NCBI GenBank assembly: GCA_947626095.1
Contig: CANQQV010000001.1
Span: 98,009-162,008, forward strand
DNA from: an uncultured Bacilli bacterium
GTDB taxonomy: Bacteria; Bacillota_I; Bacilli_A; RF39; UBA660
DNA length: 64,000 nucleotides
Direction of reading: 5' to 3'
The notes under the pieces are model-generated. The model was not told the DNA's origin. It saw only the letters and a list, made by a program, of their open reading frames with translations, and did no database searches. The stretch's first letter is position 1; each line of letters begins with the position of its first letter. The translations under genes and the position numbers were made by a program. Below are positions 33,700-61,738 of this stretch, one piece after another.

Positions 33700-33793
33700 C
33701 AAAACGAGTTTATAGGGATCTCGTTATCAAAAAACTAAATTATAAAAATAAGGAGGTGAGATATTAGAAACTTGTAATCCATACTACTCTACA

Positions 33794-34573
33794 ATGTTAG
33801 GTAATTTATATAAAGGTGATTGTTTGGAAGTTATGGATTATCTTATTGAGCAAGGTGTGAAAGTTGATGCAATAATCACTGATCCACCTTATGCAGTAAC
33901 TGGTTTTGTTTGGGATCAGATAATTCCCCTTGATGCCATGTGGGATAAACTTACAAAGTTAATTAAGGATGATGGTGCTATTGTTCTTTTTGGGAATGAA
34001 CCATTTAGTAGTAATCTTCGCTTGAGTAATCCTAAACTATATCGTTATGATTGGAAATGGATTAAAACTCAAGTAACAGGATTTCAAAATGCTAAATGTC
34101 AACCACTGCGATGTTATGAAGATATTATGGTGTTTTCTAAAGCAGGAGCTGTAACTTCTGCAAAACCACCCATGAAATATTTTCCTCAAGGTGTTATTCC
34201 TGTAAATGTAAAAGTGACTACAACTCCTGTTAACTATTTAAGGGATAATAAAAAGTTCGATAAAATCAGTTATACTCAAGAAGAAGCCAACTACCCTAGA
34301 AATGTTATACAATTTGCTAGGGAAACGGAATTGTACCATCCAACACAAAAACCTATTGCTCTTATGGAGTATATAATTTCTACCTATACAAAACGAGGTG
34401 ATTTAGTTTTGGATTTTACAAGTGGCAGTGGTTCTACCCTGTTGGCATGTGAGGTTCTTAATCGTAAATGGATTGGGATCGAAATTACAGACAAATATTG
34501 TGAAGTCATAAAAAAAAGAATTCAAAAAGGAATTCAAATGAAAATACAATTTGAGTACGATTGTGATAATTAA
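33794..34573 (+). CDS. orphan N4/N6 DNA methyltransferase, beta class (frame open upstream to ATA 33761)
   Basis: TDPPY, HPTQKP, DFTSGSGS. Confidence 0.9.
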   Translation: MLGNLYKGDCLEVMDYLIEQGVKVDAIITDPPYAVTGFVWDQIIPLDAMWDKLTKLIKDDGAIVLFGNEPFSSNLRLSNPKLYRYDWKWIKTQVTGFQNAKCQPLRCYEDIMVFSKAGAVTSAKPPMKYFPQGVIPVNVKVTTTPVNYLRDNKKFDKISYTQEEANYPRNVIQFARETELYHPTQKPIALMEYIISTYTKRGDLVLDFTSGSGSTLLACEVLNRKWIGIEITDKYCEVIKKRIQKGIQMKIQFEYDCDN

Positions 34574-34590
34574 ATATAGGAGGGATTTTA

Positions 34591-34692
34591 ATAATTAAAC
34601 AAAAAAATAGTCGAAATAACAAGGCACTCGTTTCATTCGACTACTATGATTATAACATTAAAACTGAAAAATTAACAGGAGGTATTGCTTAA
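34591..34692 (+). CDS. 33-aa ORF with ATA start, coupled to next gene
   Basis: GGAGG, 7 nt, ATA; TAATG overlap with 34692. Confidence 0.4.
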   Translation: MIKQKNSRNNKALVSFDYYDYNIKTEKLTGGIA

Positions 34693-34931
34693 TGGAAAGC
34701 ATACTTCAAGATGTACTTAAACTTATAAATGATGCTATGGGATTTTTAAGGTTGTTCGTTATTGGTGGAACAGCTTTTTTTGTTGCAAAAGATTTTGCTC
34801 TTAAAATGGCATCTAGTGATGATAATCAAAAAGCAAGTTATGATCGTAAGATAAAAACAACAATAATCGCAGGTGTTTCGGCACTTGTAACTACTCAATT
34901 TGTAACATGGATTCTAGGATACTTTCAATAA
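34692..34931 (+). CDS. TrbC/VirB2 pilin-like membrane protein
   Basis: 79 aa, two hydrophobic segments, position in transfer operon. Confidence 0.6.
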   Translation: MESILQDVLKLINDAMGFLRLFVIGGTAFFVAKDFALKMASSDDNQKASYDRKIKTTIIAGVSALVTTQFVTWILGYFQ

Positions 34932-35137
34932 TGAAACAAAAGGATTTTAATAAAACAATAAATGAAGTTTTAGATGAAGGTAAAATTGAAAATAAAGATA
35001 TTAAGAATATTGATACTTTAAGATATATTCTTGAAGATAAGAAAAATAAACATCAAAAAAATATTGAATTGAGATGTAATTTGGTAGATCTAATCAATGA
35101 TTTAGACTTCCTGAAACAATATTTAGAAAATAAGTGA
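34931..35137 (+). CDS. hypothetical protein
   Basis: TAATG coupling to upstream gene. Confidence 0.55.
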   Translation: MKQKDFNKTINEVLDEGKIENKDIKNIDTLRYILEDKKNKHQKNIELRCNLVDLINDLDFLKQYLENK

Positions 35138-35190
35138 TTTGACATATTTTTAAATTAGAGCTAACATCACTTTCAAAGAGGTGGTTCTTA

Positions 35191-35829: not shown

Positions 35830-35865
35830 GTATCTTTTTTTTGCAACAATTTAAGGAGGGATATA

Positions 35866-39214: not shown

Positions 39215-39227
39215 GGAGGAGTGATGA

Positions 39228-40583
39228 ATACAAATATTAGCAGTTAATCAAGTCGGACAAAAATGGTATCTTGATATATTAAGGAATGCTTTATGGAGTA
39301 TCGCTAAAGGTATTCTATGGTTTCTTGATGGCTTCTTTGATATCATTGATAAGATTTGGCGATATAAATTTTTTGATAATGATTATGTTAATAAGATTTT
39401 TGGTGGAGCTTTAATAATCGCCTGTTCATGGCTGATTCTTAAAACGATTATTGAATTGATTATGAATTATATAGTCAAAAACGATGGTCGTGGCAGTCCA
39501 CTAACTATTTATCGTGGTGTAATTCTTGCTATTGTAATGATGTTCTTAATCAATCCATTATTTCAATTTGGATATGATTTTTCGACTAAAACAACTGATG
39601 CTGTTATTTCAGTATCAGGTATGAGTGGATCTAGTAGTGCTGAAGGTACAATATCAAAAGCATTAATTAGGGCTATGTCGTATGATGATGAAATGAAAGA
39701 AAGCGATAAAAATTATTTAATAAACAATTGGAAGACCATAGATATAAATTCTACTGAAGGTGGAGTTGTTGGTATTGGTGATGTTTATAAATATTCGCTT
39801 AACTTTTTTATGCTGATAGTTCTCTCAATTGTAACTATCTTTTTATTATTCTTTGTGGCGATTCAGATGGCTAAACGAGTCATGGAAATCGCTCTGATGA
39901 AGATAGTCGGACCTTTCTGCTGTACGAGTCTGACTAACAATCAATCTAAAGCATTTGAAACATGGACTAAAAGTACAATGGGATATTTCCTTATAACTAT
40001 TGTTCAATTCATTTGTATAGGATTATTACTTAATATGTTTGGATCTGCTATTCAAGATAATGGAACTCTAACAGGAATATTCTTAATTATTGGTGCTTTA
40101 TTATTCGTAATAAGTACGCCTACATTAATTAGTTCTCTATTAGGTCAACAATCAGGTATGATGTCTGCCTTTGGCGATATGCAATCATTACTTGCAATTG
40201 GTAGTGGTGTTAATGCAGGGCTTTCTCTTGCTAAAGCAGGATCTATGTCTGCTCTTGGTATGGGAGCTAATGTTGTTAAAGGTGGAGCTAATAAAATATC
40301 AGGAGGCATTTCAAATATGTTTGGTGGACATGGTGGTGGTTCGTTAAATAAAGAACAAATGGCTAATGTTCAAGAAAAATTAGGACAACATAATAGTTAT
40401 GGTGCTAATCAATTAGTAAAACAATATACCCAAGAAAATATGAAGAAAAAACCTACTACTTCATTTACTAATTCTAATCCATATAAAAATCCATTCAGTA
40501 TGCAATATAACCCAATTAGAAATCAGTATATGAGCAATTCAGGACTTGAGGCAAATAGTAATTTTGATAGGAAGTGGTATTAA
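39228..40583 (+). CDS. VirB6/TrbL-like conjugation membrane protein (ATA start proposed)
   Basis: Multi-TM with Gly-rich tail; frame open 76 codons upstream of ORF-track start to ATA 8 nt after GGAGG. Confidence 0.75.
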   Translation: MQILAVNQVGQKWYLDILRNALWSIAKGILWFLDGFFDIIDKIWRYKFFDNDYVNKIFGGALIIACSWLILKTIIELIMNYIVKNDGRGSPLTIYRGVILAIVMMFLINPLFQFGYDFSTKTTDAVISVSGMSGSSSAEGTISKALIRAMSYDDEMKESDKNYLINNWKTIDINSTEGGVVGIGDVYKYSLNFFMLIVLSIVTIFLLFFVAIQMAKRVMEIALMKIVGPFCCTSLTNNQSKAFETWTKSTMGYFLITIVQFICIGLLLNMFGSAIQDNGTLTGIFLIIGALLFVISTPTLISSLLGQQSGMMSAFGDMQSLLAIGSGVNAGLSLAKAGSMSALGMGANVVKGGANKISGGISNMFGGHGGGSLNKEQMANVQEKLGQHNSYGANQLVKQYTQENMKKKPTTSFTNSNPYKNPFSMQYNPIRNQYMSNSGLEANSNFDRKWY

Positions 40584-40855: not shown

Positions 40856-40967
40856 TTATAATTTACTTATAGCCATTTTATACTTTTTGATTATCAATCC
40901 TAGTTAAAATGGGAATTTCATGATATAATTAATTTGTTAGTTTATGTCTTAAAGGATGTGATATAAA

Positions 40968-42884
40968 ATGGCTAAAAAAGAAGTTAACACAGATTTATGG
41001 GTTAATGATATTTTAAAAGAAGCTAATATTAAATTGACAGCACAAGGATGCGATATAATTGAAATCGATAATGCATTAAAAACGGCATCAAAAAACGGAA
41101 CTGGAAATGTTGGGTTTCCTGAATATTGTGGAGTCGTAAAAGATTTTGTAATTGTTATTGAAGATAAACCAACAATCGATAAACAAGTTAAATTTGATGA
41201 AAATGGCATTTTGGATATGGATGTAAAGTCTATAAAGGATTATGCTCTAAATGGTGCTTATTTTTATGCAAAACATATTTTAGAAAATACAAATTATAAA
41301 AAAGCAATTGCATTCGGTATTAGTGGTAATGAAAAAAATCATATTATTAAACCTATATATCTTGATGGTAGAGAATATTATATGGACTTACCTGAAGTTG
41401 AAAGTTTTATTCAGTTCAATAGTGAAAATATAGATGAATACTATATTAGGGAAATTTTAAAAGAGGATACTGATGAAGAAAAAACAACTGCTGAAATTAT
41501 CAATGATGCTAAAGAACTGCACGAATACTTGAGAAACTATGGTAATTTAAAAGATACTGATAAACCATTAGTAGTAAGTGGTATTCTTCTTGCATTAAGA
41601 GAAATGGAATTCAAAAATTTTTCAATAGATCAATTAAATGGTGATAGTGAAAAAACTGACGGATTAAAAATTTATAATGCAATAGAGGATAATTTAAAAA
41701 GATCTCAAGTATCTCCTGAAACTAAAAAGGATAAATTATTATCGCAATTTGCTTTAATAAAAGACACCGTTGTACTAAACGAAATTAATCCCATATTAGG
41801 GAAAACACCTTTAAAATATTATACGGAATATTTATATCAAAAACTATATAAAACTATTAGATATAATAAAACAGCTGAAGATTATCTTGGAAGATTCTAT
41901 GGCGAATTTATGAGTTATAGTGGTGGCGATGGTCAAAGTTTAGGAATAGTTTTAACTCCAAAGCATATTTGTTCATTATTTTGTGATTTAATAGATTTAA
42001 ATGAAAATGATATCGTTCTTGATCCTTGTTGTGGTACAGCTGGATTTTTAGTATCTGCAATGCATCATATGACATCTAAAACTAGCAATCCAGATTTAAT
42101 AAGAAAAATTAAAAGAGAACAGCTACATGGCTTTGAATTACAACCTTATATGTTTACTATTGCTACAACTAATATGATATTGCGTGGTGATGGTAAAAGT
42201 AATTTAATTTGTGATGATTTTTTAGCACAAGATCCTAATAAAATACAATTGAAAGGTGCTACTGTTGGAATGATGAACCCACCTTACTCTATGGGTAAAG
42301 TTAGTCCTGAAAAGTGTGAGTTAAGTTTTGTAGAGCATTTATTAGATTCTCTTACAACTGATGCTCGTTGTATAGTTATTGTTCCACAAAGTGCAATGAC
42401 TGGTAAAAATGGATATGAAAAAGCAATCAAAAAGAATATTTATAAAAAGCATACTTTAGAAGGGGTAATTACTCTTAATACTGATACATTTCACGGTGTT
42501 GGAACAAATCCTTGTATTGCAATATTTACTGCTCATGTTCCTCATAATAAAAATAAAATTTGTAAATTTATAAATTTTGAGAATGATGGATTTGTTGTTC
42601 AAAAACATAGAGGATTGGTTGAAACAGAAATTGCTAAAGATAAAAAACAACATTTGCTTGATGTTTGGAATGATAGAATTGAGTCATCAACTAAATTTTG
42701 TGTTAAAACTACTGTGGAAGATGATGATGAGTGGTTACATTCTTTTTACTATTTTAATGATGAAATACCTACTGAGGATGACTTTGAAAAAACAATGGCT
42801 GACTATTTAACCTTTGAATTTTCAATGGTAATGCAAAATAGAGATTATCTATTTAAAGGTGGCGATCATAATGAACTTGAATGA
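40968..42884 (+). CDS. BcgI-like type IIB RM endonuclease-methyltransferase subunit
   Basis: N-terminal PE...EDK nuclease motif; DPCCGTAGF and NPPY; 638 aa. Confidence 0.85.
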   Translation: MAKKEVNTDLWVNDILKEANIKLTAQGCDIIEIDNALKTASKNGTGNVGFPEYCGVVKDFVIVIEDKPTIDKQVKFDENGILDMDVKSIKDYALNGAYFYAKHILENTNYKKAIAFGISGNEKNHIIKPIYLDGREYYMDLPEVESFIQFNSENIDEYYIREILKEDTDEEKTTAEIINDAKELHEYLRNYGNLKDTDKPLVVSGILLALREMEFKNFSIDQLNGDSEKTDGLKIYNAIEDNLKRSQVSPETKKDKLLSQFALIKDTVVLNEINPILGKTPLKYYTEYLYQKLYKTIRYNKTAEDYLGRFYGEFMSYSGGDGQSLGIVLTPKHICSLFCDLIDLNENDIVLDPCCGTAGFLVSAMHHMTSKTSNPDLIRKIKREQLHGFELQPYMFTIATTNMILRGDGKSNLICDDFLAQDPNKIQLKGATVGMMNPPYSMGKVSPEKCELSFVEHLLDSLTTDARCIVIVPQSAMTGKNGYEKAIKKNIYKKHTLEGVITLNTDTFHGVGTNPCIAIFTAHVPHNKNKICKFINFENDGFVVQKHRGLVETEIAKDKKQHLLDVWNDRIESSTKFCVKTTVEDDDEWLHSFYYFNDEIPTEDDFEKTMADYLTFEFSMVMQNRDYLFKGGDHNELE

Positions 42885-43941
42885 TAAAGAATGGAGACCA
42901 TTTCCATTAGATAGTTTAGAAAAAGATGGAATTTTTAATATTTTTTCTACATCTAGTGGTATTGATAAAAACAAACTCGAAAATTTAGAAGGCAATATAC
43001 CATATATTACTAGAACTGACAAAAACAACGGAATAGAAAACTTTATAGGTAAACAACTAAATTCAAAATGGAATATCGATAAAGGAAATGTAATAACAAT
43101 TGGATTAGATACTCAAACAGTTTTTTATCAACCAAATTATTTTTATACAGGGCAAAATATACAAATATTAAGTAATGACAATTTAAATTACTATACTGCA
43201 ATGTTTATTATTCCTTTACTGAAAATTCTTTTAAAAAAATTTAGTTGGGGTGGAAATGGAGCAACACTAACAAGATTAAAAAAAAGTAAAATAATGTTAC
43301 CTATAAATGATAATGGGACTCCTGATTATATATTTATGGAAACATATACAAAAGAAAAAGAAAAAAATATGTTAAAAAAATATGTTGAATATATAAAAGT
43401 TCAAGATAAGTTCGATATGAATTCTATATCTCGTATAGTTTCATGGAAAGAATTTAAAATTAGTGATATATTCAATGAAATATCTAGGGGTAAAAGATTA
43501 AAAAAAGATAATCATATAGTTGGTAATATACCCTATGTATCTTCAACAATGCTAAACAATGGAGTTGATGGATTTATTGGTAACTCTAACGGAAGATCAT
43601 TTAATAATTGTATAACAATTGCAAATAGTGGTTCAGTTGGTTATAGTTTTTATCATCCTTATAATTTTATTGGTAGTGATCATGTAACAGCATTGAAAAA
43701 TAAAAGTTATGATAAATATATTTATTTATATATATCTACTATGTTAAAAACTTTAAGTGAAAAATATAGTTTTAATAGAGAGATAAATGATTATAGAATA
43801 AATAAGGAAAAAGTATTGTTGCCAATTAATCCAAAAACAAATGAAATAGATTTCGAATATATGGAACAACATATGAAAAAAGTAATGATTAATCAAATTA
43901 AAAAATACTTGAATTATGTTGAAAATAGAATTTATGGTTAG
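42871..43941 (+). CDS. RM specificity subunit (two TRDs)
   Basis: Two repeats GNIPY...LP...FMExY; overlaps the MTase stop. Confidence 0.85.
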   Translation: MNLNDKEWRPFPLDSLEKDGIFNIFSTSSGIDKNKLENLEGNIPYITRTDKNNGIENFIGKQLNSKWNIDKGNVITIGLDTQTVFYQPNYFYTGQNIQILSNDNLNYYTAMFIIPLLKILLKKFSWGGNGATLTRLKKSKIMLPINDNGTPDYIFMETYTKEKEKNMLKKYVEYIKVQDKFDMNSISRIVSWKEFKISDIFNEISRGKRLKKDNHIVGNIPYVSSTMLNNGVDGFIGNSNGRSFNNCITIANSGSVGYSFYHPYNFIGSDHVTALKNKSYDKYIYLYISTMLKTLSEKYSFNREINDYRINKEKVLLPINPKTNEIDFEYMEQHMKKVMINQIKKYLNYVENRIYG

Positions 43942-43972: not shown

Positions 43973-44104
43973 ATGAAATATGTTATTATAGGGCTAATAG
44001 GAATATTAGTTCTTTTTATTTACTCTGCTTGTGTTGTATCAAGTAGATGTTCTCGTGAAGAAGAAAAATGGAGGGATGAAAATGAGCATTCTACAAGAAT
44101 ATGA
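43973..44104 (+). CDS. 43-aa single-TM protein (not in ORF track)
   Basis: GGAGG RBS, MKYVIIGLIGILVLFIYSAC... Confidence 0.6.
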   Translation: MKYVIIGLIGILVLFIYSACVVSSRCSREEEKWRDENEHSTRI

Positions 44105-44594
44105 ACAAATTAGAAAAGAAATGGGTTCTACTCGTTTCGATGCTATTGGTGATTATCTCAATGAAATCAATAAGAATAGCAATACTGAATTGTTTTTATC
44201 TGATGTCTTATATAAGCAACAAGAATATGCCAAGTTTGATGCTTGGTTTTTAGATCAAATAGCACCTTTTAAATTATTTGAACAAGACAATTCTATTGCT
44301 CTAATTTTAGATGAAGAAGATTTTAAAAGCGATGCTTTTGTTAATCGTGAAGTAGATCAAATATACTCTAATGGTTATGGATGGGATCAAGTTATAAAAT
44401 CATATATCAATGATCATTTTCCTAATATGTTAGATAATGTATATTTCGATTCGGAGCTATCAATGTTTTGTGTTTATTTTAATGATAAAAGAGACTTTGA
44501 CGAATTATCTTATAACTTTATTAAGTTATATAAAGATGATGTTGCCTTAAAAGATTATATTGATAATATGAAAATTATTGATATCAATATATAA
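44082..44594 (+). CDS. protein with Imm51-like C-terminal domain
   Basis: NGYGW...FDSELSMFCVY. Confidence 0.55.
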   Translation: MSILQEYEQIRKEMGSTRFDAIGDYLNEINKNSNTELFLSDVLYKQQEYAKFDAWFLDQIAPFKLFEQDNSIALILDEEDFKSDAFVNREVDQIYSNGYGWDQVIKSYINDHFPNMLDNVYFDSELSMFCVYFNDKRDFDELSYNFIKLYKDDVALKDYIDNMKIIDINI

Positions 44595-44606
44595 GGGGGA
44601 TGGGAT

Positions 44607-44963
44607 ATAGAAAAAAGGAAAAAATTAAAATATAATAATCAATTATGGTTTGTTAATGTTTCTTCTTATAATAACGGAAGAATGAAACTTACCATTTCAA
44701 ATAGAAAAGAAATTAAAGAAATTACTATTGATTTAGATGATGCCTACTTAAAAGATGGGCATATTTTTTTAAATCCTGAAGTCAAAGATAATGGTATTCT
44801 TAAAGTTCTTAAAAAAAGTCGTATTATTAGAGAGATAGATGGTACTCTTTGTTATGATTATACAATGATTCCTATTGCTCTTACTAATAATGGAATACTT
44901 AAAACTTATGATTATTCAGGTGTTTTAAATTATCTTGATTTTATAAATAATAAGGAGGACTGA
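44607..44963 (+). CDS. hypothetical protein (ATA start proposed)
   Basis: AAGGGGG, 7 nt, ATA; in frame with 44682 ORF. Confidence 0.6.
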   Translation: MEKRKKLKYNNQLWFVNVSSYNNGRMKLTISNRKEIKEITIDLDDAYLKDGHIFLNPEVKDNGILKVLKKSRIIREIDGTLCYDYTMIPIALTNNGILKTYDYSGVLNYLDFINNKED

Positions 44964-44966
44964 TCT

Positions 44967-45209
44967 ATAAAGAATGATAGATTAAAATTATATAATTCTA
45001 CTCTAACGATAAGGTTAGATAAAAAAGAAAAAGATACTTTAAAGCGAAATGCTTATAAAAATAAAATGACAATGTCTAATTATATTAGATTACTTATTTC
45101 TATGGATAATAGATTATGTGAAATTCAAAAGAATAAGGATAAAAATAATAAGTATGCATCTGAAATCTCTAAAATTATGATAAATATTGGGAGGGATTTA
45201 GATGTTTAA
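44967..45209 (+). CDS. ribbon-helix-helix protein with ATA start (not in ORF track)
   Basis: GGAGG, 8 nt, ATA; TLTIRLDKKEKDTLKRNAYKNKMTMSNYIR. Confidence 0.7.
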   Translation: MKNDRLKLYNSTLTIRLDKKEKDTLKRNAYKNKMTMSNYIRLLISMDNRLCEIQKNKDKNNKYASEISKIMINIGRDLDV

Positions 45210-47562: not shown

Positions 47563-48200
47563 TGCAGGATATGAAAAAAATATATATCTTTCTTTCGTGT
47601 TGTCCTGTTCTTGTAGTAGTATTAGTTTTCTTTTTAATATTGATGGTATGTTCTTCATCTAGTTCTGATTCCTCGGCTGTTCCTGTTGGTGATATTATGG
47701 AGTTTAATGCCCCATTTAAAATGGGTGTTAATTACACCATTACTTCCCCTTATGGGTCAAGAAAAGATCCTTTCACTGGTGAGGAGTCCTTTCATAGTGG
47801 TATAGATTTGGCAGCACCTGTTGGTACTGAAATTGTGGCATCAGCAAGTGGTACTGTCTATAAAACTGGTTATGAAGAAAACGGATTAGGTAACTATGTA
47901 AAATTAGAGCACACCGTTAGTGGCATAAAATACTATACTGCTTATGGTCACATGAGTGATAATTCGATTGTTGTAAGTGAAGGTCAAATAGTCACTCAAG
48001 GTCAAAAATTAGGTATTATTGGTATGTCAGGAAGAGCAACTGGTGTTCATGTTCACTTTATGCTTATGACACCCAATTGTACCTATAATAGTTCGGATTT
48101 GAAAGATCCACAAATGATAATAGATAACGATTTAGCAAGGAGGAATAAATATAAACTACCAACAATCCAACCAAGACCAACTTATGGAGTCACAAAGTGA
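47562..48200 (+). CDS. M23 peptidoglycan endopeptidase
   Basis: HSGID, YGH, GVHVHF; N-terminal TM. Confidence 0.9.
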   Translation: MQDMKKIYIFLSCCPVLVVVLVFFLILMVCSSSSSDSSAVPVGDIMEFNAPFKMGVNYTITSPYGSRKDPFTGEESFHSGIDLAAPVGTEIVASASGTVYKTGYEENGLGNYVKLEHTVSGIKYYTAYGHMSDNSIVVSEGQIVTQGQKLGIIGMSGRATGVHVHFMLMTPNCTYNSSDLKDPQMIIDNDLARRNKYKLPTIQPRPTYGVTK

Positions 48201-48414
48201 TTTAATAGAAAGTTATGCTTTACAAGTTGCTAGTGTTCTTCATAAAACTGGTAAAGGTTCATTTACAATGGATGAGATTTGTGAAAAAGTAAAAGAACTT
48301 GTTAAGGAAGAAGAACTTGTAGAACCTGTTGTAATTGAGGTTAAACAACTTCTAATTAACAAGTATAATTTTGAAATTATAAATACTAATATTAAGTTTG
48401 ATATTGAAATATAA
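48184..48414 (+). CDS. hypothetical protein
   Basis: Overlaps upstream stop; ends FDIEI. Confidence 0.6.
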   Translation: MESQSDLIESYALQVASVLHKTGKGSFTMDEICEKVKELVKEEELVEPVVIEVKQLLINKYNFEIINTNIKFDIEI

Positions 48415-48670: not shown

Positions 48671-48759
48671 ATGGTCTTAAAATTGTGTCCTATTTCTCGT
48701 GAATTTCAAAATAACTGATGTCCTTGTTTTGTGGCATCATTTTATATGGAGGTGATATT

Positions 48760-48936
48760 ATAAATAATAACAATGGATGTACTTTTATTAAGTTTAGAAT
48801 TGATGATAATCTAAATACTGCTTTTAAAAGTATTTTAGAAAAAGAAAAAATAACTCAACAAGATCTACTCGAAAAATTAGTTAAAGAATATGTATTAAGT
48901 AACCTTAACCTATTGATAAGTAAGGATAATAAATGA
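48760..48936 (+). CDS. RHH relaxosome accessory protein (ATA start proposed)
   Basis: GGAGG, 7 nt, ATA; FIKFRIDD...QQDLLEKLVKEYV. Confidence 0.65.
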   Translation: MNNNNGCTFIKFRIDDNLNTAFKSILEKEKITQQDLLEKLVKEYVLSNLNLLISKDNK

Positions 48937-50825: not shown

Positions 50826-51224
50826 ATGGAACAATTAGATTTAAAATTAGATGAATATAAAAAGTCTTTAATTACAATTAACATTAGTGACCAGTATTGG
50901 TGTATGGTAGACTTATGTTTTGAAAATGAATATTTTAAATATAATAATTGTTCAGAGATGTTGCAAAAAACGGAAGTTAAAAGGATCTATGAAACTTTAA
51001 CTTCCTGTTTAGCAGGTCGACTTGCAGATAATACTAAATTGTCATTCGATGAAGATTATTTGCAATTCTATTTTTACAAAGATAAAATAGATAATCAACA
51101 TTGTGTCGAATTAAGAATATTCACTTTTATAGATGAATACAGGGATTATTATTCAGTAATGTTAACTACACCAGAAATGAGTGAGTTAAGGGATTATTTA
51201 TATGAATTAGTAAAAAAGTTTTAA
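50826..51224 (+). CDS. hypothetical protein
   Basis: Own TGTTATAAT promoter; terminator after stop. Confidence 0.65.
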   Translation: MEQLDLKLDEYKKSLITINISDQYWCMVDLCFENEYFKYNNCSEMLQKTEVKRIYETLTSCLAGRLADNTKLSFDEDYLQFYFYKDKIDNQHCVELRIFTFIDEYRDYYSVMLTTPEMSELRDYLYELVKKF

Positions 51225-52888: not shown

Positions 52889-54391
52889 TCAGATTGTTGA
52901 CAAAAGGGTATTATTTTTGAATAATGCCCTTTTTATTTTAGTTATTGACATTAAAATTGTTTTTTGAACATTATTTTTAGTCATATCCATTTTGTTTTCC
53001 CCTTTATTTGATTTCCACATTGCCATTTTCTTTAAATTGTAGCATGAAAAAATTAAGAGTACTTGGTTTTTATTTTTTTCTAAACCTCTTACTCTTGTAA
53101 ATCTTAATCCATGTTGTTCTTTACAAATTGCAAAAATACGTTCAACTGTTTCCTTTCTTTTTGGATACTCTTGTTTAAATAAATCTTCATATCTTTTTTG
53201 ATTTGCTTTATCTTTTTTATCTTGCCATATGTGTCTTGTTATAACTTTTTGATGATTTTTACTTTTTGTACACTTTTTTAGTAGAGGACATTTTGAACAG
53301 CTTTCTTTATTGGCTTTATATATTTTATATCCTTTTTTATCTATTGTTTTAAGTTCCAGTATTTCTCCTGTTGGACATACATAACAATCATTTTTTGCAT
53401 TATATTCATATTCTTTTTTTGAAAACATTTCTTTATCTTTTCTACCTTTTGGTCTTGAATATGGCATTAATGCTTCTTTTCCCGTATCTTCAATTTTTTT
53501 ACAAATAGCTGATGTATTATATCCTGCATCTAAACAAACATTATCTATTTCTTTATCGTAGTCATTCAACAACTCTTCATATACACTTTCAAATGCGACA
53601 CTATCATGAGTATTACCTGAATTTGTTGAACATGCTACAACAAAACCATTTCCATCACTAAAAGCTTGATGTGTATATGCAAAACATTTTTCATGTTCTC
53701 CTTTGTGATAGTATCCACTATCTGGATCTATCGTACTAGATTTTATATTTTTTTTCTTCTTGACTTCTATTTCTTCTCCTGTTTTTTCATCGAAATCTTT
53801 TTCAATTATTTCGATACTTTTAAATGGTTTTTTATTTAATTTTAAACGTCCTTCATTTATTTCTTTTAGTAATTCTTCATCATATGATTTTAATTCAATT
53901 TCTACTTCTAAGTCTTCATACTTGTTTTTATTTGCATTAGCCTTTTGATGAGTTCCATCTCCATATACTGTCTTCATATTTAACATTTTATATTCTTTTG
54001 CTTGTTTTAATATTCTTTTAAATATAGTTTTGAATATATCTGTATTTCTATATCTTCTTATATAGTTTTGACTCCAAGTACTATAATCTGGTATTTTATC
54101 ATCTATTGATAATCCCAAATACCATCTATATGCTAAATTTACTTCACACTCACTGCATGTTTTTCTCATCGAATTTATACCAAACATGTAATTTATAATT
54201 AACAATTTAAAAAGTACCAAAGGAGGAATACTTGGTTTACCAAATGCACTGTATAGATTTTCAACTTCATCTTCAATGAATTTTAAATCTATGACTTTAT
54301 CTAATTTTCTAACCAAATGTTCTTGAGGTACTATATCTTCTATCGTTTTTAATATTATACAATCATTTCTAAATTCTTGTCTTGACATCAT
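52889..54391 (-). CDS. IS1182-family DDE transposase
   Basis: GKPSIPP, DGTHQKANA, DAGY, RKETVERIFA. Confidence 0.9.
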   Translation of the reverse strand: MMSRQEFRNDCIILKTIEDIVPQEHLVRKLDKVIDLKFIEDEVENLYSAFGKPSIPPLVLFKLLIINYMFGINSMRKTCSECEVNLAYRWYLGLSIDDKIPDYSTWSQNYIRRYRNTDIFKTIFKRILKQAKEYKMLNMKTVYGDGTHQKANANKNKYEDLEVEIELKSYDEELLKEINEGRLKLNKKPFKSIEIIEKDFDEKTGEEIEVKKKKNIKSSTIDPDSGYYHKGEHEKCFAYTHQAFSDGNGFVVACSTNSGNTHDSVAFESVYEELLNDYDKEIDNVCLDAGYNTSAICKKIEDTGKEALMPYSRPKGRKDKEMFSKKEYEYNAKNDCYVCPTGEILELKTIDKKGYKIYKANKESCSKCPLLKKCTKSKNHQKVITRHIWQDKKDKANQKRYEDLFKQEYPKRKETVERIFAICKEQHGLRFTRVRGLEKNKNQVLLIFSCYNLKKMAMWKSNKGENKMDMTKNNVQKTILMSITKIKRALFKNNTLLSTI

Positions 54392-54562: not shown

Positions 54563-54601
54563 AAACAAGTCTAAACTTGTTTTTTATTTGGAGGGATATA
54601 A

Positions 54602-56389
54602 ATAAAAATTAAAAAATACTTTAACTATTTTCTTTTATTCATCTTAACTTTTTTAGCATCCTCGAATATTTGCTATAATCTTACTCATATAATCGAAACA
54701 AATATAAAATTAACTTGGAATTTAAATTTCTTTCACTCCTTTCTAAAAACGATTACTGATGTTAGTTTATTATTTGGTTCATTATTGCTTATGTCAATTA
54801 TGATGTTATTTATATTGAAATATGATAAAGAATTTAAGTTAAAGCTAAATAAATTTAAAAAGATGCCTGAAGAAGACGGATCATATGAGTATGGATCTTC
54901 TCGTTGGGCTACTAAAAAAGAAATTAGAAAAAATTATAAGACATGGAATATCAATTCAAAATTAAAGTCAGGTGGTATTCCTGTAACTTATATGGATGGT
55001 AAATATTACTATTCGGATAAATTTGATCATACTTTGATTATTGGTTCTACTGGTTCAGGTAAAACTATCAGTTGTATATTGCCACTTATATTCAATTTAG
55101 GATGTGCTGGTGAGTCAATGGTTATAAATGATACTAAAGGCGAACTTTATTCTTATACTGCTGACTTTTTAAAGAAAAAAGGTTATAAGATTCGAATAAT
55201 CAATTTAAGAGATGCTCTTGCAAGTGATGGTTGGAACCCACTTCATTTACCTTATAAATATTATCAAAGTAATAATAAAGATGAGGCAGGAGATCTAATT
55301 GAAAACTTTTCTAAATCTTTATGTAAAAACTTATCATCTAAAGATATGTATTGGGAAAAGTCAGCAACTGCTGTTTTGTCTGCTTTATGTTATGCTCTTA
55401 TTGAAGATGCTCCTAGTGAGTCACAAGTAAATTTATATTCTATATATAATTTATTGGTTGAACATGGAAGTAAAACTATTGATAGATTCAACTCGTTAGA
55501 TTTATATTTTCAACAAAAACCTTTCGGTAGTTTAAGTAAGATGAGTTATGCTACTGGTTCTTTTGCAAAGGGCGAGACTAGAGCTACTCTTTTCTCTGTC
55601 CTAGCAACTGTCATCAAAATGTTTAGTGATACAGGAATTGCTAACTTAACTAGTCGTACTGATTTTGAATTAGATGATATTGGGAAAAAGAAAACTGCTG
55701 TATTTTTAATTATTCCTGATGAAAAAGAGTCTAGACATGAATTAGCATCATTGTTTATCGATCAATGCTATCAAGCATTAGTTAATACAGCTCAAAATAT
55801 GAAAGATGGTCGTATGCCTATTAGAGTTAATTTTATACTTGATGAATTTGCTAATATGCCACCTATAAGTTCTATATCAAATAAGATTACTGTCAGTCGA
55901 TCTCGTAATATTAGATTCTATTTAGTTTTACAAGATTTTGATCAGTTGAAAGAAACCTATAAAGATTCTGCAGGTACTATTAAATCAAATTGTACTAACT
56001 GGATTTATCTTCTGACTGCAGATAATGAAACAGCAAAAGAAATAAGTTCAAGGTTAGGAAAATATACTATTTCAAGTAACAGGGTTTCTACTTCTACTCG
56101 TTTGGAACAATTGGATTATAATATTTCGAATGATAAATCTTTAATTGGTCGTGAGTTATTGATGCCTGATGAACTTATGCGATTTAAATTAGGCGATGGC
56201 TTATTCATATCGGCTAGACAATACCCAATTAGATCTAAATTACTTCCTATTAGTCAGTATGGAATAAAAATAAAAATGTCATCCGTTCCTAAAAAAGCAA
56301 AAGACTTTACTATTGATTGCTTTAATCTTGATGAGTTTAGAAAGAAAAAAATACAACAAGACGATGATGGCAAGGTAGATTTAGTATAA
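54602..56389 (+). CDS. virD4: VirD4/TraG coupling protein (ATA start proposed)
   Basis: GSTGSGKT, DTKGEL, LDEFAN; first TM lies in the 61 codons upstream of the ORF-track start. Confidence 0.9.
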   Translation: MKIKKYFNYFLLFILTFLASSNICYNLTHIIETNIKLTWNLNFFHSFLKTITDVSLLFGSLLLMSIMMLFILKYDKEFKLKLNKFKKMPEEDGSYEYGSSRWATKKEIRKNYKTWNINSKLKSGGIPVTYMDGKYYYSDKFDHTLIIGSTGSGKTISCILPLIFNLGCAGESMVINDTKGELYSYTADFLKKKGYKIRIINLRDALASDGWNPLHLPYKYYQSNNKDEAGDLIENFSKSLCKNLSSKDMYWEKSATAVLSALCYALIEDAPSESQVNLYSIYNLLVEHGSKTIDRFNSLDLYFQQKPFGSLSKMSYATGSFAKGETRATLFSVLATVIKMFSDTGIANLTSRTDFELDDIGKKKTAVFLIIPDEKESRHELASLFIDQCYQALVNTAQNMKDGRMPIRVNFILDEFANMPPISSISNKITVSRSRNIRFYLVLQDFDQLKETYKDSAGTIKSNCTNWIYLLTADNETAKEISSRLGKYTISSNRVSTSTRLEQLDYNISNDKSLIGRELLMPDELMRFKLGDGLFISARQYPIRSKLLPISQYGIKIKMSSVPKKAKDFTIDCFNLDEFRKKKIQQDDDGKVDLV

Positions 56390-56392
56390 TTA

Positions 56393-56425
56393 TGTTATAA
56401 TATTTAGTGAAACAAATAGTAATTT
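56393..56425 (+). repeat. promoter plus AAATAGTAATTT site, copy 3 (followed by two genes)
   Basis: TGTTATAATATTTAGTGAAACAAATAGTAATTT then GTAGGAGG. Confidence 0.75.
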
Positions 56426-56439
56426 GTAGGAGGAAAATT

Positions 56440-56874
56440 ATGAAATTATTTAAAAAATCAAAAAATAATAATTTTGAGTTAATATGTGAAAAAATGGCAA
56501 ATGAGTTAATTAGTTTATATAATAAAAATAAAGGTATATCTTTTGAAAATATTTCTGAATTAGAAAGACAAATTTTAGCAGTATATTTTTTTGGTATGAG
56601 TGATGGATTAAGACAAGATTTAGCGACTAATTCAAATGTAAATGAAATAGCCAATATAATTATAAATATTATGATTAAAGATTTTAAGTATTCAAAAGAA
56701 CAAGCAGAACAATTCTTTGATGAAATGATAGATAATCTTCAAAGTAAAAATCCAAGCAACACCCATTATGCTATTATTCACAATGGTCTTGATGGTTATT
56801 TTAAATGGCAAAAAAATAACAAAAATGAAGTGATTAACGATATTTGTAAAATTATTGATATACTAAAAAAGTAG
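56440..56874 (+). CDS. Imm48-like orphan immunity protein (cassette-like cargo)
   Basis: ELERQILAVYFFGM and IIHNGLDGY; followed by AAATTACAATTT at 56879-56890. Confidence 0.6.
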   Translation: MKLFKKSKNNNFELICEKMANELISLYNKNKGISFENISELERQILAVYFFGMSDGLRQDLATNSNVNEIANIIINIMIKDFKYSKEQAEQFFDEMIDNLQSKNPSNTHYAIIHNGLDGYFKWQKNNKNEVINDICKIIDILKK

Positions 56875-56978
56875 CATTAAATTACAATTTATATAATCAA
56901 AAAAATCTAACTCTACTAATTGTAGGTGTTAAAAATTGTGTTAATATTATATAGTTGTTTTTGAAAGGAGCAAGAAGT

Positions 56979-58130: not shown

Positions 58131-58145
58131 ATTATAATTTATTCG

Positions 58146-58171
58146 AGTAGAAAACCATCTACTCTTTTTTT
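58146..58171 (+). terminator. intrinsic terminator
   Basis: GAGTAGA-AAACCA-TCTACTC followed by T-run. Confidence 0.75.
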
Positions 58172-58189
58172 ATAGGAGGAGGAATAAAA

Positions 58190-58894
58190 ATAGTATTTGA
58201 AAAAAATAGTAGTTTGGAAGTAAGCCAAACTTTTTTTAATGAATTAGAAAAGAAATTAAAAAATGCACCAGATTCTTTGAATGGATATTATAAAACTTTT
58301 AATAATTGCCGAGAACAAGGATTAATGTTAACGATTTATAATGATAACGATAATGAAATATTGGTATGGGCTTGTGAAAGTCGTAATAGCGATAATATTA
58401 TGGTTATTACAGCTGATCGTAATTGTTCTGATATAAACGATATGTTTAATGATGTTGCATGGCAATCTGCTAAATATTTCAAATGTGGTGATTATGATTC
58501 AGCAGTTAATTATGCTTTTAATGTTATAAAAAAACAATTCAAAAATGATTTTCCTGAAATCTCTAATACAAAGTTTGAAATGTATAAATCTCTTTCGGAT
58601 ATTCAAAGAATAGAGGCAGATGCAAAACAATTAGATTATGAAGATTATAAAGATCTTGCTAATTTTGAAGATGTAAATGAAGGATATTTTTGTGATCTAA
58701 TAATTATGGATGGTAAGTTAGGTTTAAGATATTCAAAATATTGTGATGAATGCCATGATGAATTCGATAATCTTATCTTTGAAGAATGGCATCCCGATTT
58801 AACAAGTAGCACTACTTTAATGTTAGGGATGCAAAATAAATTAAAAGATTTTGTAGATAAAGAAATAGATTACGAAGTTAATATTGGCATTTAA
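58190..58894 (+). CDS. hypothetical protein (ATA start proposed)
   Basis: GGAGG, 7 nt, ATA in frame; ends NIGI. Confidence 0.65.
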   Translation: MVFEKNSSLEVSQTFFNELEKKLKNAPDSLNGYYKTFNNCREQGLMLTIYNDNDNEILVWACESRNSDNIMVITADRNCSDINDMFNDVAWQSAKYFKCGDYDSAVNYAFNVIKKQFKNDFPEISNTKFEMYKSLSDIQRIEADAKQLDYEDYKDLANFEDVNEGYFCDLIIMDGKLGLRYSKYCDECHDEFDNLIFEEWHPDLTSSTTLMLGMQNKLKDFVDKEIDYEVNIGI

Positions 58895-58910
58895 ATATAG
58901 GAGGTAAAAT

Positions 58911-59387
58911 ATGTTTGATGAAAACAAAATAAAAAGAATTAAAGAACAATACCCTAAAGGTACTGAAATAGAACTTATTAGTATGGAAGATTCTCAAGCT
59001 GTACCATCAGGGACACATGGGGTTGTAGATTTTGTAGATGATATTGGTACTATTTTTATGAAATGGGATAATGGTTCATCTCTTGGTTTGGTTGTTGGCG
59101 AGGATCAATTTAGAGTTGTTAAAAGACCAAATCTTGCTCGTGAAGAATTAGAAAAAGCAAAGAAACAACTTAAAGATAATGATACTTTATCTTTATTTAC
59201 TTATAACAAAGAAACAGGAAGTACAGGTGTTGCATCTTTCATACAAAATGAAAATAAAGTTAAAGTTTTTGAAGGAAACCCTGACGGATCTGATGATATC
59301 ATTATGGACTATGATGAATTTGTAAATAATTACAAATATGAGGTTGCTAATGAATTTGATAATCCTTTTAAGGATATAGGTATTTAG
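58911..59387 (+). CDS. DUF4314-domain protein
   Basis: YPKGTEIELISMED...VDDIGTI..WDNGSSLGL. Confidence 0.8.
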   Translation: MFDENKIKRIKEQYPKGTEIELISMEDSQAVPSGTHGVVDFVDDIGTIFMKWDNGSSLGLVVGEDQFRVVKRPNLAREELEKAKKQLKDNDTLSLFTYNKETGSTGVASFIQNENKVKVFEGNPDGSDDIIMDYDEFVNNYKYEVANEFDNPFKDIGI

Positions 59388-59398
59388 GAGGGATATAT

Positions 59399-59971
59399 AT
59401 AGAAGTTAAAAATATTTCTTGTAAGGAAGTAAAAGAATTACGAAAAGATGAATACGAATATTTAGTATTACAAGGTTGTGGTGGTGACCTTAATGAATGG
59501 GTTAACAGCTTTACTAAAATGTTAAAAGATGAAGGGATCGTAAGTGATTCCTTTTCTTTTAGTAGAGTTTATTCGTTTAAAAATAATGAGTTAACTAATT
59601 TACTTTTTCCACTCTTTGATAAGGATATTATAATGACAAAATTAGCAATGTTTAGACTAAAAATTAGGGATAACTTTGGAGCTATGTGGCTATCTGATTA
59701 TATTGATAATGGTTATATAAAAGACATAGAAAAACCTAAAGCCCCTATTATTGGAGCTGATGGTAATGTCTTTAATTTAATTGGGATATGTAGTCGTGTA
59801 TTAAGAAAAGCAGGATACTCAGATCAGGCAAAAGAAATGACTGATAGAATTACAAATTCAAAAAGTTATGATGATGCTCTTTCTATAATGTGTGAATATA
59901 TAGAACCAGTCGATCAAAACTATAATACCATTGATGTTTTTAGCGATGATGATATCGATATAGATATATAA
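59399..59971 (+). CDS. hypothetical ICE protein (ATA start proposed)
   Basis: GGAGG, 7 nt, ATA; LVLQGCGGDLNEW upstream of first ATG; GADGNVFNLIG domain. Confidence 0.7.
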   Translation: MEVKNISCKEVKELRKDEYEYLVLQGCGGDLNEWVNSFTKMLKDEGIVSDSFSFSRVYSFKNNELTNLLFPLFDKDIIMTKLAMFRLKIRDNFGAMWLSDYIDNGYIKDIEKPKAPIIGADGNVFNLIGICSRVLRKAGYSDQAKEMTDRITNSKSYDDALSIMCEYIEPVDQNYNTIDVFSDDDIDIDI

Positions 59972-59983
59972 GGAGGATTGAGG

Positions 59984-61012
59984 TTGTTAGAAGAACAATT
60001 AAAGAAAATAAATGAATTAAGTTTTCAAACAAATAAAACAAAAGATGTTCAAGAAAAAGAAAAATTAGAAGATGATATTAAGTCTATAATTAACGATCTA
60101 AAAAAACAAGCAATTGAAAGTTTTAAATCTGAAAGTGATGTTAAAAAGTTTTTGGATAATATCGTTAAATTTAATAATTATTCTTATAATAATCAATGTT
60201 TAATTTGGATGCAAAAACCTGATGCGAGTTATGTAGCACCACTTCGTACTTTTAATAAAATGGGATATCGTATTAACTCTAATGAAAAAGGTATTAAAAT
60301 ATTAGTTCCTACTTTTTATACTATTGTAAAAATTAAAACTGATGAAGAAGGCAAATATATAGTAAAACCTTTATTTAGTTTGACGGATGAAGAAAGAAAA
60401 AAATATGAAAACAAAGATGACGATTCTATTACTTATCATAGTCAAAAGTTAAGTAACTTTAAAATTGGGACTGTCTTTGATGCTAGTCAAACTACTATGC
60501 CATTAGATGCGATAGAAGAAAAATTAAATCCTGTATTAGAGGATGATCGTGCTAGTGGTATGGAAGATAACTTTATTAAAGCTATTTATCGTAATGGGTT
60601 CAAAGTTCGTTATGAAGAAAAGATAGAGTCAGGTGCTAAAGGTTATTGTGACTTTGAAAAAAATGAGATAGTTGTATTAAAAGGTTTAAGTAATCTTATG
60701 AGGTTAAAAGTAGTTATTCATGAATATGCCCACTCCCTTGCTCATAAGCATTTACTTAATAATAATATGGATTATCAAACAAATAGAAATAAATATGAAA
60801 CGGAGGCAGAGTCTATTGCTTATGTTGTATCAAAATATTTAGGTTTAGATACAAGTTCATATTCACAAATGTATTTATATTCTTGGAGTAAGGATAAAGA
60901 CTTTAAAGAAATTGATGATTCATTAAGTTCTATCGTTAACTATTCAAAAATGATTATAGATAATTATGAAAAAATTGTTTCTAAAGATTTAGAACAAAAT
61001 ATTGCTATATAG
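59984..61012 (+). CDS. ArdC-like ssDNA-binding antirestriction protein with HExxH domain
   Basis: FNNYSYNNQCLI, GIKILVP, VFDASQT, HEYAH, ETEAES. Confidence 0.8.
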   Translation: MLEEQLKKINELSFQTNKTKDVQEKEKLEDDIKSIINDLKKQAIESFKSESDVKKFLDNIVKFNNYSYNNQCLIWMQKPDASYVAPLRTFNKMGYRINSNEKGIKILVPTFYTIVKIKTDEEGKYIVKPLFSLTDEERKKYENKDDDSITYHSQKLSNFKIGTVFDASQTTMPLDAIEEKLNPVLEDDRASGMEDNFIKAIYRNGFKVRYEEKIESGAKGYCDFEKNEIVVLKGLSNLMRLKVVIHEYAHSLAHKHLLNNNMDYQTNRNKYETEAESIAYVVSKYLGLDTSSYSQMYLYSWSKDKDFKEIDDSLSSIVNYSKMIIDNYEKIVSKDLEQNIAI

Positions 61013-61024
61013 TGAGGTGTTCTT

Positions 61025-61438
61025 ATGATAATGAAACATAAAAGCATAGATCTATCTAGTCGAGTTGTTAATGGAATATATGATAAAGCAAATAAAAGTT
61101 TCAAAGGATTAGATGGAATTATTGAGGTTTTTAATAATACAAGAGATCAAGGTTATATTTTAAAAATATATGATTCTTATGATCCACAATATGATACTTG
61201 TATTTGGGTTTATGATGTTCCTTATGATGAAAAATTAGTTGTAATCTTTGGTAATAGATTAGATTGTAATAGTGATAATTCTTGGAATAAGGAAATGTTT
61301 GAAAGTAGAAAAGAATATGTCTTATCAGAGCATGGAGGTATTCTTGCAACTGTGACTCTTGTGACTGATGAATTATTTGATTACTTAAAAGAAAAGTATG
61401 ATAAAGATGAAAAAATGGATGTTCATCTAAATATATAA
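61025..61438 (+). CDS. hypothetical protein, weak paralog of the 58190 N-terminus
   Basis: FNNTRDQG versus FNNCREQG. Confidence 0.65.
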   Translation: MIMKHKSIDLSSRVVNGIYDKANKSFKGLDGIIEVFNNTRDQGYILKIYDSYDPQYDTCIWVYDVPYDEKLVVIFGNRLDCNSDNSWNKEMFESRKEYVLSEHGGILATVTLVTDELFDYLKEKYDKDEKMDVHLNI

Positions 61439-61450
61439 GGAGGATTAGAT

Positions 61451-61738
61451 ATAGAGGATAAGAAATATACTCTTGGTGATTTAATAACTTGTATTGGAAG
61501 TCTAGTAAAAGATTATGAAAATGACTTGAATAATCATCAAATAAATGGTAATAAACAACACAGGTTAGTTAAAACCAAAGATGTAGTTAAGGAATACCCA
61601 ATCTTAACTTTGTATGCTCTTGAAAAAGCAGTCAAAGAAAATAAGATTCCTTATACTCGAGTTGGTAATACTAATTACTTTGATGTTGTAGATATAGAAG
61701 AATATATAACATCCAATAAGCGAAATGGTGATGATTAG
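61451..61738 (+). CDS. xis: excisionase-like HTH protein (ATA start proposed)
   Basis: KIPYTRVG...IEEYI; directly upstream of integrase; GGAGG, 7 nt, ATA. Confidence 0.7.
   Translation: MEDKKYTLGDLITCIGSLVKDYENDLNNHQINGNKQHRLVKTKDVVKEYPILTLYALEKAVKENKIPYTRVGNTNYFDVVDIEEYITSNKRNGDD

Follow-up and report, generated by a model that had tools for sequence, protein, structure and literature searches.

In Escherichia coli, infC starts at an AUU codon that is discriminated by initiation factor 3 (IF3). Herein, we describe a 33-kb integrated element in the genome of an uncultured gut bacterium of the Bacilli (GTDB lineage RF39, UBA660) in which about 11 of 31 genes by the gene map, or about one third, appear to start at ATA. 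The element, an integrative conjugative element (ICE) of the Firmicute type IV secretion system (T4SS) type inserted in a tRNA-Trp gene, occupies about 30.77 to 63.82 kb of the window, by which we mean the whole 64,000-nucleotide stretch that was analyzed (G000:C1:98009-162008, that is, positions 98,009 to 162,008 of the forward strand of the 162-kb contig CANQQV010000001.1, assembly GCA_947626095.1, from a bin of 1.6 Mb with a GC content of about 27-28%). The resemblance to infC-type attenuation is that a near-cognate codon of the isoleucine type stands behind a good Shine-Dalgarno (SD) sequence, is conserved in homologues, and is expected to be weak and sensitive to IF3; the difference is that infC is one gene autoregulated by its own product, whereas many genes are concerned here, none of them encoding a translation factor. 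Control of this kind, attenuation by a near-cognate start, is known, and its element-wide use appears to be new.

Conserved AUA and AUU starts with strong SDs are described in Staphylococcus aureus for infC, ccpN, cvfC1, and citZ (bioRxiv 10.1101/2025.06.19.660503; PMC13009471). The likeness lies in a strong Firmicute-type SD that, at the proper spacing, directs initiation at AUA or AUU; output there is about 10-30% of AUG and, for ccpN, varies with the medium. The differences are that those starts belong to four scattered chromosomal genes, whereas the set here is clustered and element-wide, and that in this element family the SD at ATA-type starts (ATA, ATT, or ATC) is not longer than at canonical ones (ATG, GTG, or TTG). 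For Tn916, likewise a Firmicute ICE, an ATA start was proposed in 1993 for a regulatory gene, orf7.1; in a later work it is judged unlikely and a nearby GTG is favored (bioRxiv 10.64898/2026.10.01.756105), and it is a single case, not a systematic one. A search of the literature on ATA or AUA starts together with conjugative or mobile elements returned no report of element-wide use, the discussion of Tn916 orf7.1 being its only yield. In gene content, the closest systems are Firmicute T4SS ICEs with a “CD1115 family” VirD4 (a name taken from plasmid annotations), with which the element shares VirB4-like and TraG-P-loop ATPases, TrbL/VirB6, and VirD4, as well as a MobL relaxase with a NikA-like partner, a sortase, an M23 peptidase, an ArdC-like protein, xis and a tyrosine integrase, and a tRNA gene as target. 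Unlike these, the family of the window element is known only from uncultured gut and rumen assemblies, and its best VirD4 matches in PLSDB, on Bacillus thuringiensis plasmids, are below 40% identity, with no cultured close relative in that database.

The explanation that we favor, and which we regard as probable rather than established, is that a defined subset of the element's genes initiates at a near-cognate codon and is thereby subject to gene-specific translational attenuation. The codon would be AUA in the window copy, and AUA predominates in relatives too, with AUU as a less frequent and AUC, GUA, or UUA as rare alternatives, at the optimal distance of 7-8 nt from a strong SD. The ordinary initiator fMet-tRNA (anticodon CAU) would read it with a third-position mismatch, aided by the strong, well-spaced SD and often also by a U at position -1 that would pair with A37 of the initiator. 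Initiation would then run far below that at AUG, with IF3 discriminating, and would yield little protein per transcript from each such gene, that is, from xis (and int, probably via coupling), VirD4, VirB6, the NikA-like accessory protein, the methylase, and several unknowns, to which relatives add the second T4SS ATPase and the ArdC-like gene. How much protein these genes yield should depend on the condition of the initiation machinery (IF3, guanosine tetraphosphate [ppGpp], and nutrient status).

The initial annotation had listed ten sites at which ATA stands in frame with a long open reading frame (ORF) behind GGAGG (AAGGGGG at 44607), and all ten stood when re-read in the sequence, with an SD-to-ATA spacing of 7-8 nt at nine of them and 4 nt at 33761; an eleventh, with GGAGG at 48139-48143 and ATA at 48151, opens 87 codons and is newly found. 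All of these genes lie on the forward strand, and the first canonical codon follows the ATA by 8 to 76 codons. The greatest distance belongs to the TrbL/VirB6-like gene (39215-40583), in which ATA 39228 follows GGAGG by 8 nt and is directly preceded by TGA, with the first canonical codon 76 codons on. In the gene for the VirD4 coupling protein (54590-56389), ATA 54602 follows GGAGG by 7 nt, is directly preceded by TAA, and is separated from the first canonical codon by 61 codons; no co-directional gene precedes it. The gene orf118 (44593-44963) has AAGGGGG, 7 nt, and ATA 44607; a protein atlas search gave only a weak lead for its product, to DUF4313-like clusters of 119-141 aa. It is followed by the gene for a NikA-like ribbon-helix-helix protein (44954-45209), in which ATA 44967 lies 8 nt from GGAGG. 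In-frame stops stand 3, 15, 6, and 3 nt upstream of 39228, 44607, 44967, and 54602, respectively, as had been claimed.

A 7-nt spacing between GGAGG and ATA recurs in the newly found orf87 (48139-48414), which overlaps the 3' end of the M23 peptidase gene; in orf58 (48748-48936, ATA 48760), which encodes a RelB/DinJ-like small protein and has an in-frame ATG 14 codons upstream (48718) that lacks an SD; and in orf190 (59387-59971, ATA 59399), which matches phrog_1933 in its C-terminal part. The gene orf234 (58175-58894; phrog_6319), with no usable match in the protein atlas search, has GGAGGAGG, 7 nt, and ATA 58190. Two sites are less clear: the N6/N4 DNA methylase gene (33752-34573), whose first ATG is at 33794, carries the SD AAGGAGGTGA followed by ATA 33761 at only 4 nt and by TTA 33764 at the usual 7-nt position, making its exact start ambiguous, and a doubtful gene at 34579-34692 (GGAGG, 7 nt, ATA 34591) has 33 codons without any canonical one and no protein-level match in G001, a same-genus genome with the one relative that covers the region.

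The excisionase-like HTH_17 gene, xis (61439-61738), has ATA 61451 at 7 nt from GGAGG and is followed by the tyrosine integrase gene (61741-63321, forward strand; Pfam Phage_integrase), which starts with ATG. Because this ATG (61741) lies 2 nt past the xis stop and has no SD scored upstream, the integrase is probably translationally coupled to xis, and the xis ATA probably limits both proteins. As a label for the whole set, “transfer and excision genes” is only partly apt: the set is wider, in that it includes the DNA methylase and four proteins of unknown function, and narrower, in that ATG opens the window copy's genes for VirB4, the MobL relaxase, and the integrase. Separately, a short hairpin with a T-run lies directly before the VirD4 SD (54563-54590), likewise in L023, L027, and other related loci, with stem letters that differ while pairing is kept (AAACAAG/CTTGTTT in the window; CAAGTG/CACTTG and CAAGTT/AACTTG elsewhere); it was not called on the forward strand by a simple terminator scan and could be a terminator or another regulatory hairpin.

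Several observations support the view that the ATA-type sites are genuine start positions. They are conserved across diverged relatives, and the stretch between ATA and the first canonical codon evolves as coding sequence, with differences at codon positions 1, 2, and 3 of 720, 295, and 1027 in VirD4, 84, 51, and 140 in VirB6, and 121, 39, and 162 in orf190; further, the amino acid identity of the 5' extensions is similar to that of the following 60 codons. No canonical codon lies at a usable distance from the SD, and the stop directly before the ATA at 39228 and 54602 recurs in many loci, so that the conserved frame opens exactly there. As first proposed, domain parts precede the first canonical codon: the NikA-like domain covers residues 11-44 of the ATA-started protein, of which the first ATG is codon 34, and VirD4 has its hydrophobic stretch at residues 6-27, ahead of the first TTG at codon 62. 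These same features make it very unlikely that the sites are not starts at all and that the SD is a standby or mRNA-stabilizing ribosome pad, with translation from a downstream canonical codon. Start-less SD elements that stabilize mRNA are known in Bacillus, and every ORF except the 33-codon one does have an in-frame ATG, GTG, or TTG downstream; however, that first canonical codon is unconserved in position among homologues (index 0 to 67) and lacks an SD.

Other routes to translation of these frames were considered and set aside. An out-of-frame ATG followed by a frameshift fails as a general mechanism, in that out-of-frame ATG or GTG codons overlap the SD region only at 39228, 44607, and 48760. 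A start-stop “ATG TAA” before the ATA in L040 and L045 looks neutral, the spacer position reading A, C, or G elsewhere. Reinitiation alone is not distinctive, in that most ATA starts lie 3-62 nt after the upstream gene but canonical starts do likewise, and coupling as a general explanation is countered by VirD4, which follows a convergent insertion sequence (IS) gene and a 210-nt gap.

ATA starts are concentrated in the element, and the window's host genes have none, as the initial annotation had held. Specifically, ATA occurs at +7/+8 after GGAGG in 11 of 32 cases in the element versus 31 of 585 in the rest of the genome (odds ratio 9.4, Fisher p = 1.8e-6), with a background ATA frequency of 4.2% per position. 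When a GGAGG motif was counted only if it led into an ORF of 60 codons or more with a stop close upstream, the element had 8 canonical, 7 ATA, and 4 other starts, and the rest of the genome had 193 canonical, 6 ATA, 5 ATT, and 42 other starts. A genome scan for GGAGG that has no canonical start at 4-10 nt but leads, shortly after an upstream stop, into an ORF of 50 codons or more returned 46 places; those that have ATA at a spacing of 7-8 nt are clustered in the element, 48151 among them. Beyond the element, a less strict scan gave 21 candidates, of which 2-3 were credible by eye (C22 at 15686, C15 at 24963, and perhaps C3 at 133351) among about 1250 long ORFs; the possibility raised at the outset, that a ribosome-binding site followed by ATA is equally common in host genes, thus failed. 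The host's own infC starts with TTG. The best host candidate, on the reverse strand of C22 at about 15686 (G000:C22), has AGGAGG, 7 nt, and ATA before a 223-codon thioredoxin-like ORF in which the first canonical codon lies 80 codons downstream.

Relatives of the element were collected by a VirD4 scan of species-representative genomes, which gave 47 loci in other assemblies, with VirD4 66-91% identical; these assemblies come from gut and rumen, and most bear the title Bacilli, Tenericutes, Erysipelotrichaceae, or “Mycoplasma sp. CAG:472”. Identical start contexts were collapsed, canonical codons were given priority, and SD-led starts were scored. Summed over all genes, the distinct SD-led contexts comprised 133 with ATA, ATT, or ATC, 11 with GTA, TTA, or CTG, and 66 canonical ones. 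The usage is gene-specific. It is complete for xis (15/15 ATA/ATT/ATC, 13 of them ATA; 0/15 canonical) and for orf118 (17/17, again 13 ATA; 0/17 canonical), and VirD4 has no SD-led ATG, GTG, or TTG among its 30 contexts, 26 of which are ATA, ATT, ATC, GTA, or TTA (14 ATA, 5 GTA, 4 ATT, 2 TTA, and 1 ATC, with 1 AAT and 3 without an SD making up the rest). Majorities of ATA/ATT/ATC were found for the ArdC-like gene (16/22, with ATA in 15/22 despite diverged spacers), the second, TraG-like ATPase (11/18), orf234 (14 of 21, with 4 canonical and 3 without an SD), and orf58 (14 of 20 ATA/ATT, 6 canonical). The NikA-like gene (5 ATA, 3 ATG, and 6 without a scored SD in 14 contexts) and orf190 (4 ATA, 2 canonical, 2 without an SD, and 1 other in 9) are mixed, orf137 leans to canonical starts (13 versus 8 ATA-type), and orf87 yielded only two distinct homologous contexts. 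DUF4314 (9/9), orf352 (3/3), and Imm51 (5/6, with 1/6 ATA-type) have canonical starts. The false-positive rate of the script is low, because three genes that lack an SD, those for M23, NikA2, and MobL, gave no ATA-type call in 57 contexts.

The same-genus genome G001 carries a relative of the element at 65-76% DNA identity, in which the starts read GGAGG, 7 nt, and ATT for the methylase and for VirB6; GGAGG, 9 nt, and ATT for orf58; GGAGG, 10 nt, and ATA for VirD4; GGAGG, 8 nt, and ATA for xis; and ATA, then ATG, for the NikA-like gene. A family-wide search of 301 genomes for VirB6 added 13 loci, with ATA or ATT after GGAGG or GGGGG in 8/8 homologues at 62-86% identity and ATG in 5/5 at 42-49%. 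Alignment with homologous elements thus found close homologues to be mostly without ATG, contrary to what decay or an assembly error would have left, and the suggestion that the codon is ATA throughout holds for the window copy but not for the relatives, which also use ATT, ATC, GTA, and TTA. That the ATA codons are errors of assembly or sequencing, or that the element is dead and decaying, we consider exceedingly unlikely: the source is a metagenome bin (91% complete, 7.9% contamination) and an IS transposase sits inside the element, but the 47 loci of other assemblies and additional genomes share the feature, none of the long ORFs is broken, and the element is contiguous with host genes on the 162-kb contig and flanked by two tRNA gene halves. 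Among the related loci, L047 and L050 have an A7/A8 run, three codons past the VirD4 start position, whose length differs between the two by one A, which shifts the frame relative to the SD-proximal ATA and could reflect a homopolymer or assembly error, or slippage.

The genetic code is standard, as internal ATA behaves as isoleucine: internal VirD4 ATA codons align to Ile 525 times, Met 53 times, Val 47 times, and Leu 37 times (696 residues, eight commonest classes), and ATG codons align to Met 440 times. A reassignment of ATA to Met was rejected on these grounds. The initiator tRNA of G001 is likewise standard, in that it has C1/A72 and A37 and its anticodon stem contains three G-C pairs; in the host bin, neither an initiator tRNA nor a 16S gene was found. 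Ordinary fMet-tRNA acting on a near-cognate codon would fit both the tight spacing, which is 7-8 nt in 107/133 ATA-type contexts versus 28/60 canonical ones of the same elements, and the enrichment of T at -1, present in 89/133 (67%) versus 23/60 (38%; p = 2.7e-4, from counts that are not phylogenetically independent). Of all ATA triplets in the genome, 27.6% have a T before them, and the enrichment recurs in orf118, orf58, xis, orf234, NikA, and orf137. In E. coli, initiation is promoted when A37 of the initiator tRNA pairs with a U at -1 (PMC10018350). The parallel with this A37:U(-1) quadruplet pairing is that U at -1 is enriched at ATA-type starts and that the same-genus initiator has A37; unlike the small, general boost described in E. 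coli, the pairing here would offset a third-position mismatch, which is our own suggestion.

Alternatively, a dedicated decoding aid could make AUA efficient, whether an element or host factor, a variant or modified initiator tRNA that reads NUA, or third-base A-to-I editing. The ATA, GTA, and TTA found at the VirD4 site are the three canonical starts with A for G at the third position, a pattern that an NUA-reading initiator or third-base editing predicts and for which we reserve a small probability for such a mechanism; the concentration of usage in one element lineage and the presence of nine element proteins without assigned function also speak for it. All the same, we think it improbable. 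The only tRNA of the element is Trp (ARAGORN, Rfam), the 14 tRNAs of the 47 related sequences are limited to Cys, Gly, Trp, and Arg, with none initiator-like, and neither the element nor its relatives yielded any other RNA family or any translation-related protein family. Pfam, NCBIfam, and PHROG searches of the element gave no translation factor, deaminase, or enzyme of tRNA modification, and the element-encoded factor that had been suggested to release the ATA starts was found neither there nor in the tRNA scans. A single initiator-like motif with a UAU anticodon, in G012, lies within an ORF and is not a tRNA. Further, the use of ATT and ATC would be unexplained by editing or by an NUA reader, and the bases after ATA differ between sites, with no common editing motif.

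A number of points weigh against attenuation at near-cognate codons and should be set beside the evidence for it. Initiation at ATA-type codons is something that we infer from sequence alone, the related-locus counts are not phylogenetically independent, and the script, which puts canonical codons first and chooses whichever spacing is closest to 7 nt, could make the spacing look tighter. SD length is alike at ATA-type and canonical starts of the same elements (mean 6.50 versus 6.35 nt, p = 0.64), and the idea that an extended SD compensates for the codon is not specifically supported; in the window, the SD match is 6.7 nt at ATA sites, 5.2 nt at canonical element starts, and 5.6 nt at host genes, as scored against a general anti-SD complement. 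GTA and TTA at the VirD4 site are double mismatches to CAU and poorly explained by near-cognate reading, and the loci concerned have an in-frame ATA, ATT, or ATG 1-4 nt after the SD, which leaves the exact start ambiguous. Usage is also not cleanly lineage-specific: G123 and G274, with VirD4 48-51% identical, have ATA 8 nt after AAGGGGG at VirD4, and G123 has it at the ArdC-like gene as well, while the outgroup G117 has TTG at VirD4 and mostly canonical strong-SD starts (14 versus 2 ATA-type).

A rival reading is tolerated drift, in which AT-biased mutation turns ATG into ATA in rarely expressed genes, the SD suffices, and the codon has no regulatory meaning. The genome is AT-rich, with the low GC content given above, and G-to-A is a single transition; start class flips among relatives in orf137, orf58, and orf234; and the relaxosome ATPase and ArdC-like genes are canonical in the window copy and ATA in many relatives. 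We nonetheless judge drift unlikely, if still worth keeping in view. In the same AT-rich host family, the VirD4 genes of other T4SS families keep ATG or GTG in 15/15 evaluated cases (3/18 loci were left out, another ORF having been picked), and host genes almost never use ATA. Second, ATA is far commoner than ATT, though both triplets are common. Third, no SD-led canonical start occurs in the 62 distinct xis, orf118, and VirD4 contexts, although their spacers have diverged and one A-to-G change restores ATG; because this one-step reversion is available and yet absent, the pattern argues for selection against ATG and hence for low output, which simple tolerance does not account for. Judged by the outgroup and the distant relatives, ATA usage goes back far for some genes and is strongest in the lineage to which the window element belongs; in G001, strong-SD starts divide into 8 ATA-type and 5 canonical.

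Low translation, a regulatory use, and a contribution of the -1 U:A37 pair are thus what we infer, and the translational throttle proposed in the initial annotation seems the most economical reading, supported by the sequence evidence together with the output of AUA and AUU in E. coli and S. aureus. In E. coli, initiation at AUA, AUU, and AUC amounts to 1-2% of that at AUG (bioRxiv 10.1101/063800), and AUA and AUU behind strong SDs in S. aureus reach about 10-30% of AUG (bioRxiv 10.1101/2025.06.19.660503). Nutrient limitation and ppGpp are reported to depress non-AUG mRNAs more than AUG mRNAs in vitro (PMC5499595), which would point to relief when nutrients are plentiful and not under stress. 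More tentatively, the weak AUA could constitute a start-codon regulon that ties the whole transfer program to one variable of host initiation (IF3 occupancy, ppGpp, or nutrient state); this possibility, to which we give appreciably less weight than to attenuation itself, would span excision (xis and the coupled int), the coupling protein, the channel protein, relaxosome accessories, and antirestriction functions. If true, a mobile element would be using initiation fidelity as a global posttranscriptional switch, which is undescribed for any ICE in the literature that we searched. A still bolder version would have an unrecognized element protein turn AUA initiation on.

Noncanonical starts are usually isolated, and here a third of one element's genes rely on ATA, kept across dozens of diverged copies, so that start-codon choice would be usable at the scale of a whole genetic program. 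The element may offer a natural system for how IF3, ppGpp, or growth state gates horizontal gene transfer in gut bacteria. It is of clear interest to those who study translation initiation or conjugative elements, and it matters in practice for annotation. Standard gene callers accept only ATG, GTG, and TTG. With such callers, VirD4 would lose 61 residues, VirB6 would lose 76, and the small proteins of xis, the NikA-like gene, and orf118 would lose 25-33 residues, and truncated calls of this sort distort surveys of conjugative elements in metagenomes.

The assignment as an ICE draws on T4SS ATPases, a coupling protein, a relaxase, an integrase/excisionase pair, and flanking repeats at a tRNA gene, all of which were found (Pfam and repeat search). 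The attL core, CTCCAAAACCG, lies at 30767-30777 on the forward strand, within the 5' half of the split native tRNA-Trp gene (30737-30783; Rfam tRNA partial match, 34.6 bits), and the attR core, the same 11-bp repeat, lies at 63809-63819 on the forward strand and is followed by the 3' half; the repeat occurs twice in the window versus 0.01 expected. The host tRNA-Trp gene is interrupted at the anticodon loop by the element (30737-31002 and 63800-63850). Just inside attL, the element bears a complete tRNA-Trp(CCA) at 30929-31002 on the forward strand (ARAGORN; Rfam 64.4 bits), which is more AT-rich than the split host gene and likely replaces it.

The cargo and transfer genes comprise an ArpU/sigma-like regulator, the N6/N4 DNA methylase, a VirB4-like ATPase, a sortase, and TrbL/VirB6; a type I methylase with its specificity subunit, three immunity-like proteins, and the M23 peptidase; a second T4SS ATPase (TraG P-loop/TraC-like), two NikA-like proteins, the MobL relaxase, and an HTH repressor; and an IS transposase on the opposite strand, VirD4, the ArdC-like protein, the HTH_17 excisionase-like protein, and the tyrosine integrase. 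The transposase, of the IS-type DDE class (DDE_Tnp_1_6, DUF772), lies at 52889-54391 on the reverse strand, between orf352 and VirD4, and is convergent with the upstream genes. The type I restriction-modification methylase and specificity subunit (40968-43941) are without a restriction subunit among the element genes scanned, and the three immunity-like genes are orphans (Imm51 at 44082, WapI-like at 50826, and Imm48 at 56440). A promoter- or leader-like module (TATAAT, ...GTGAAACAAATAGTAATTTG, GGAGGAGG) is repeated three to four times in the element, in families D1 and D2, with copies at 31962-32088, 56380-56437, and 58189-58218, the last of which overlaps the orf234 ATA start. Related loci (G001, L047, L050, L057, L059, L065, L066, and L068) carry a tRNA-Cys(GCA) on the opposite strand, which in G001 lies between the ArdC-like gene and xis, the position of orf137 in the window copy. 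Finally, outside the element, a tmRNA gene at 2565-2927 on the reverse strand is assigned the tag peptide VHIYRVYYYIA by ARAGORN, unlike the usual alanine-rich tags, and its resume codon may have been mis-called.

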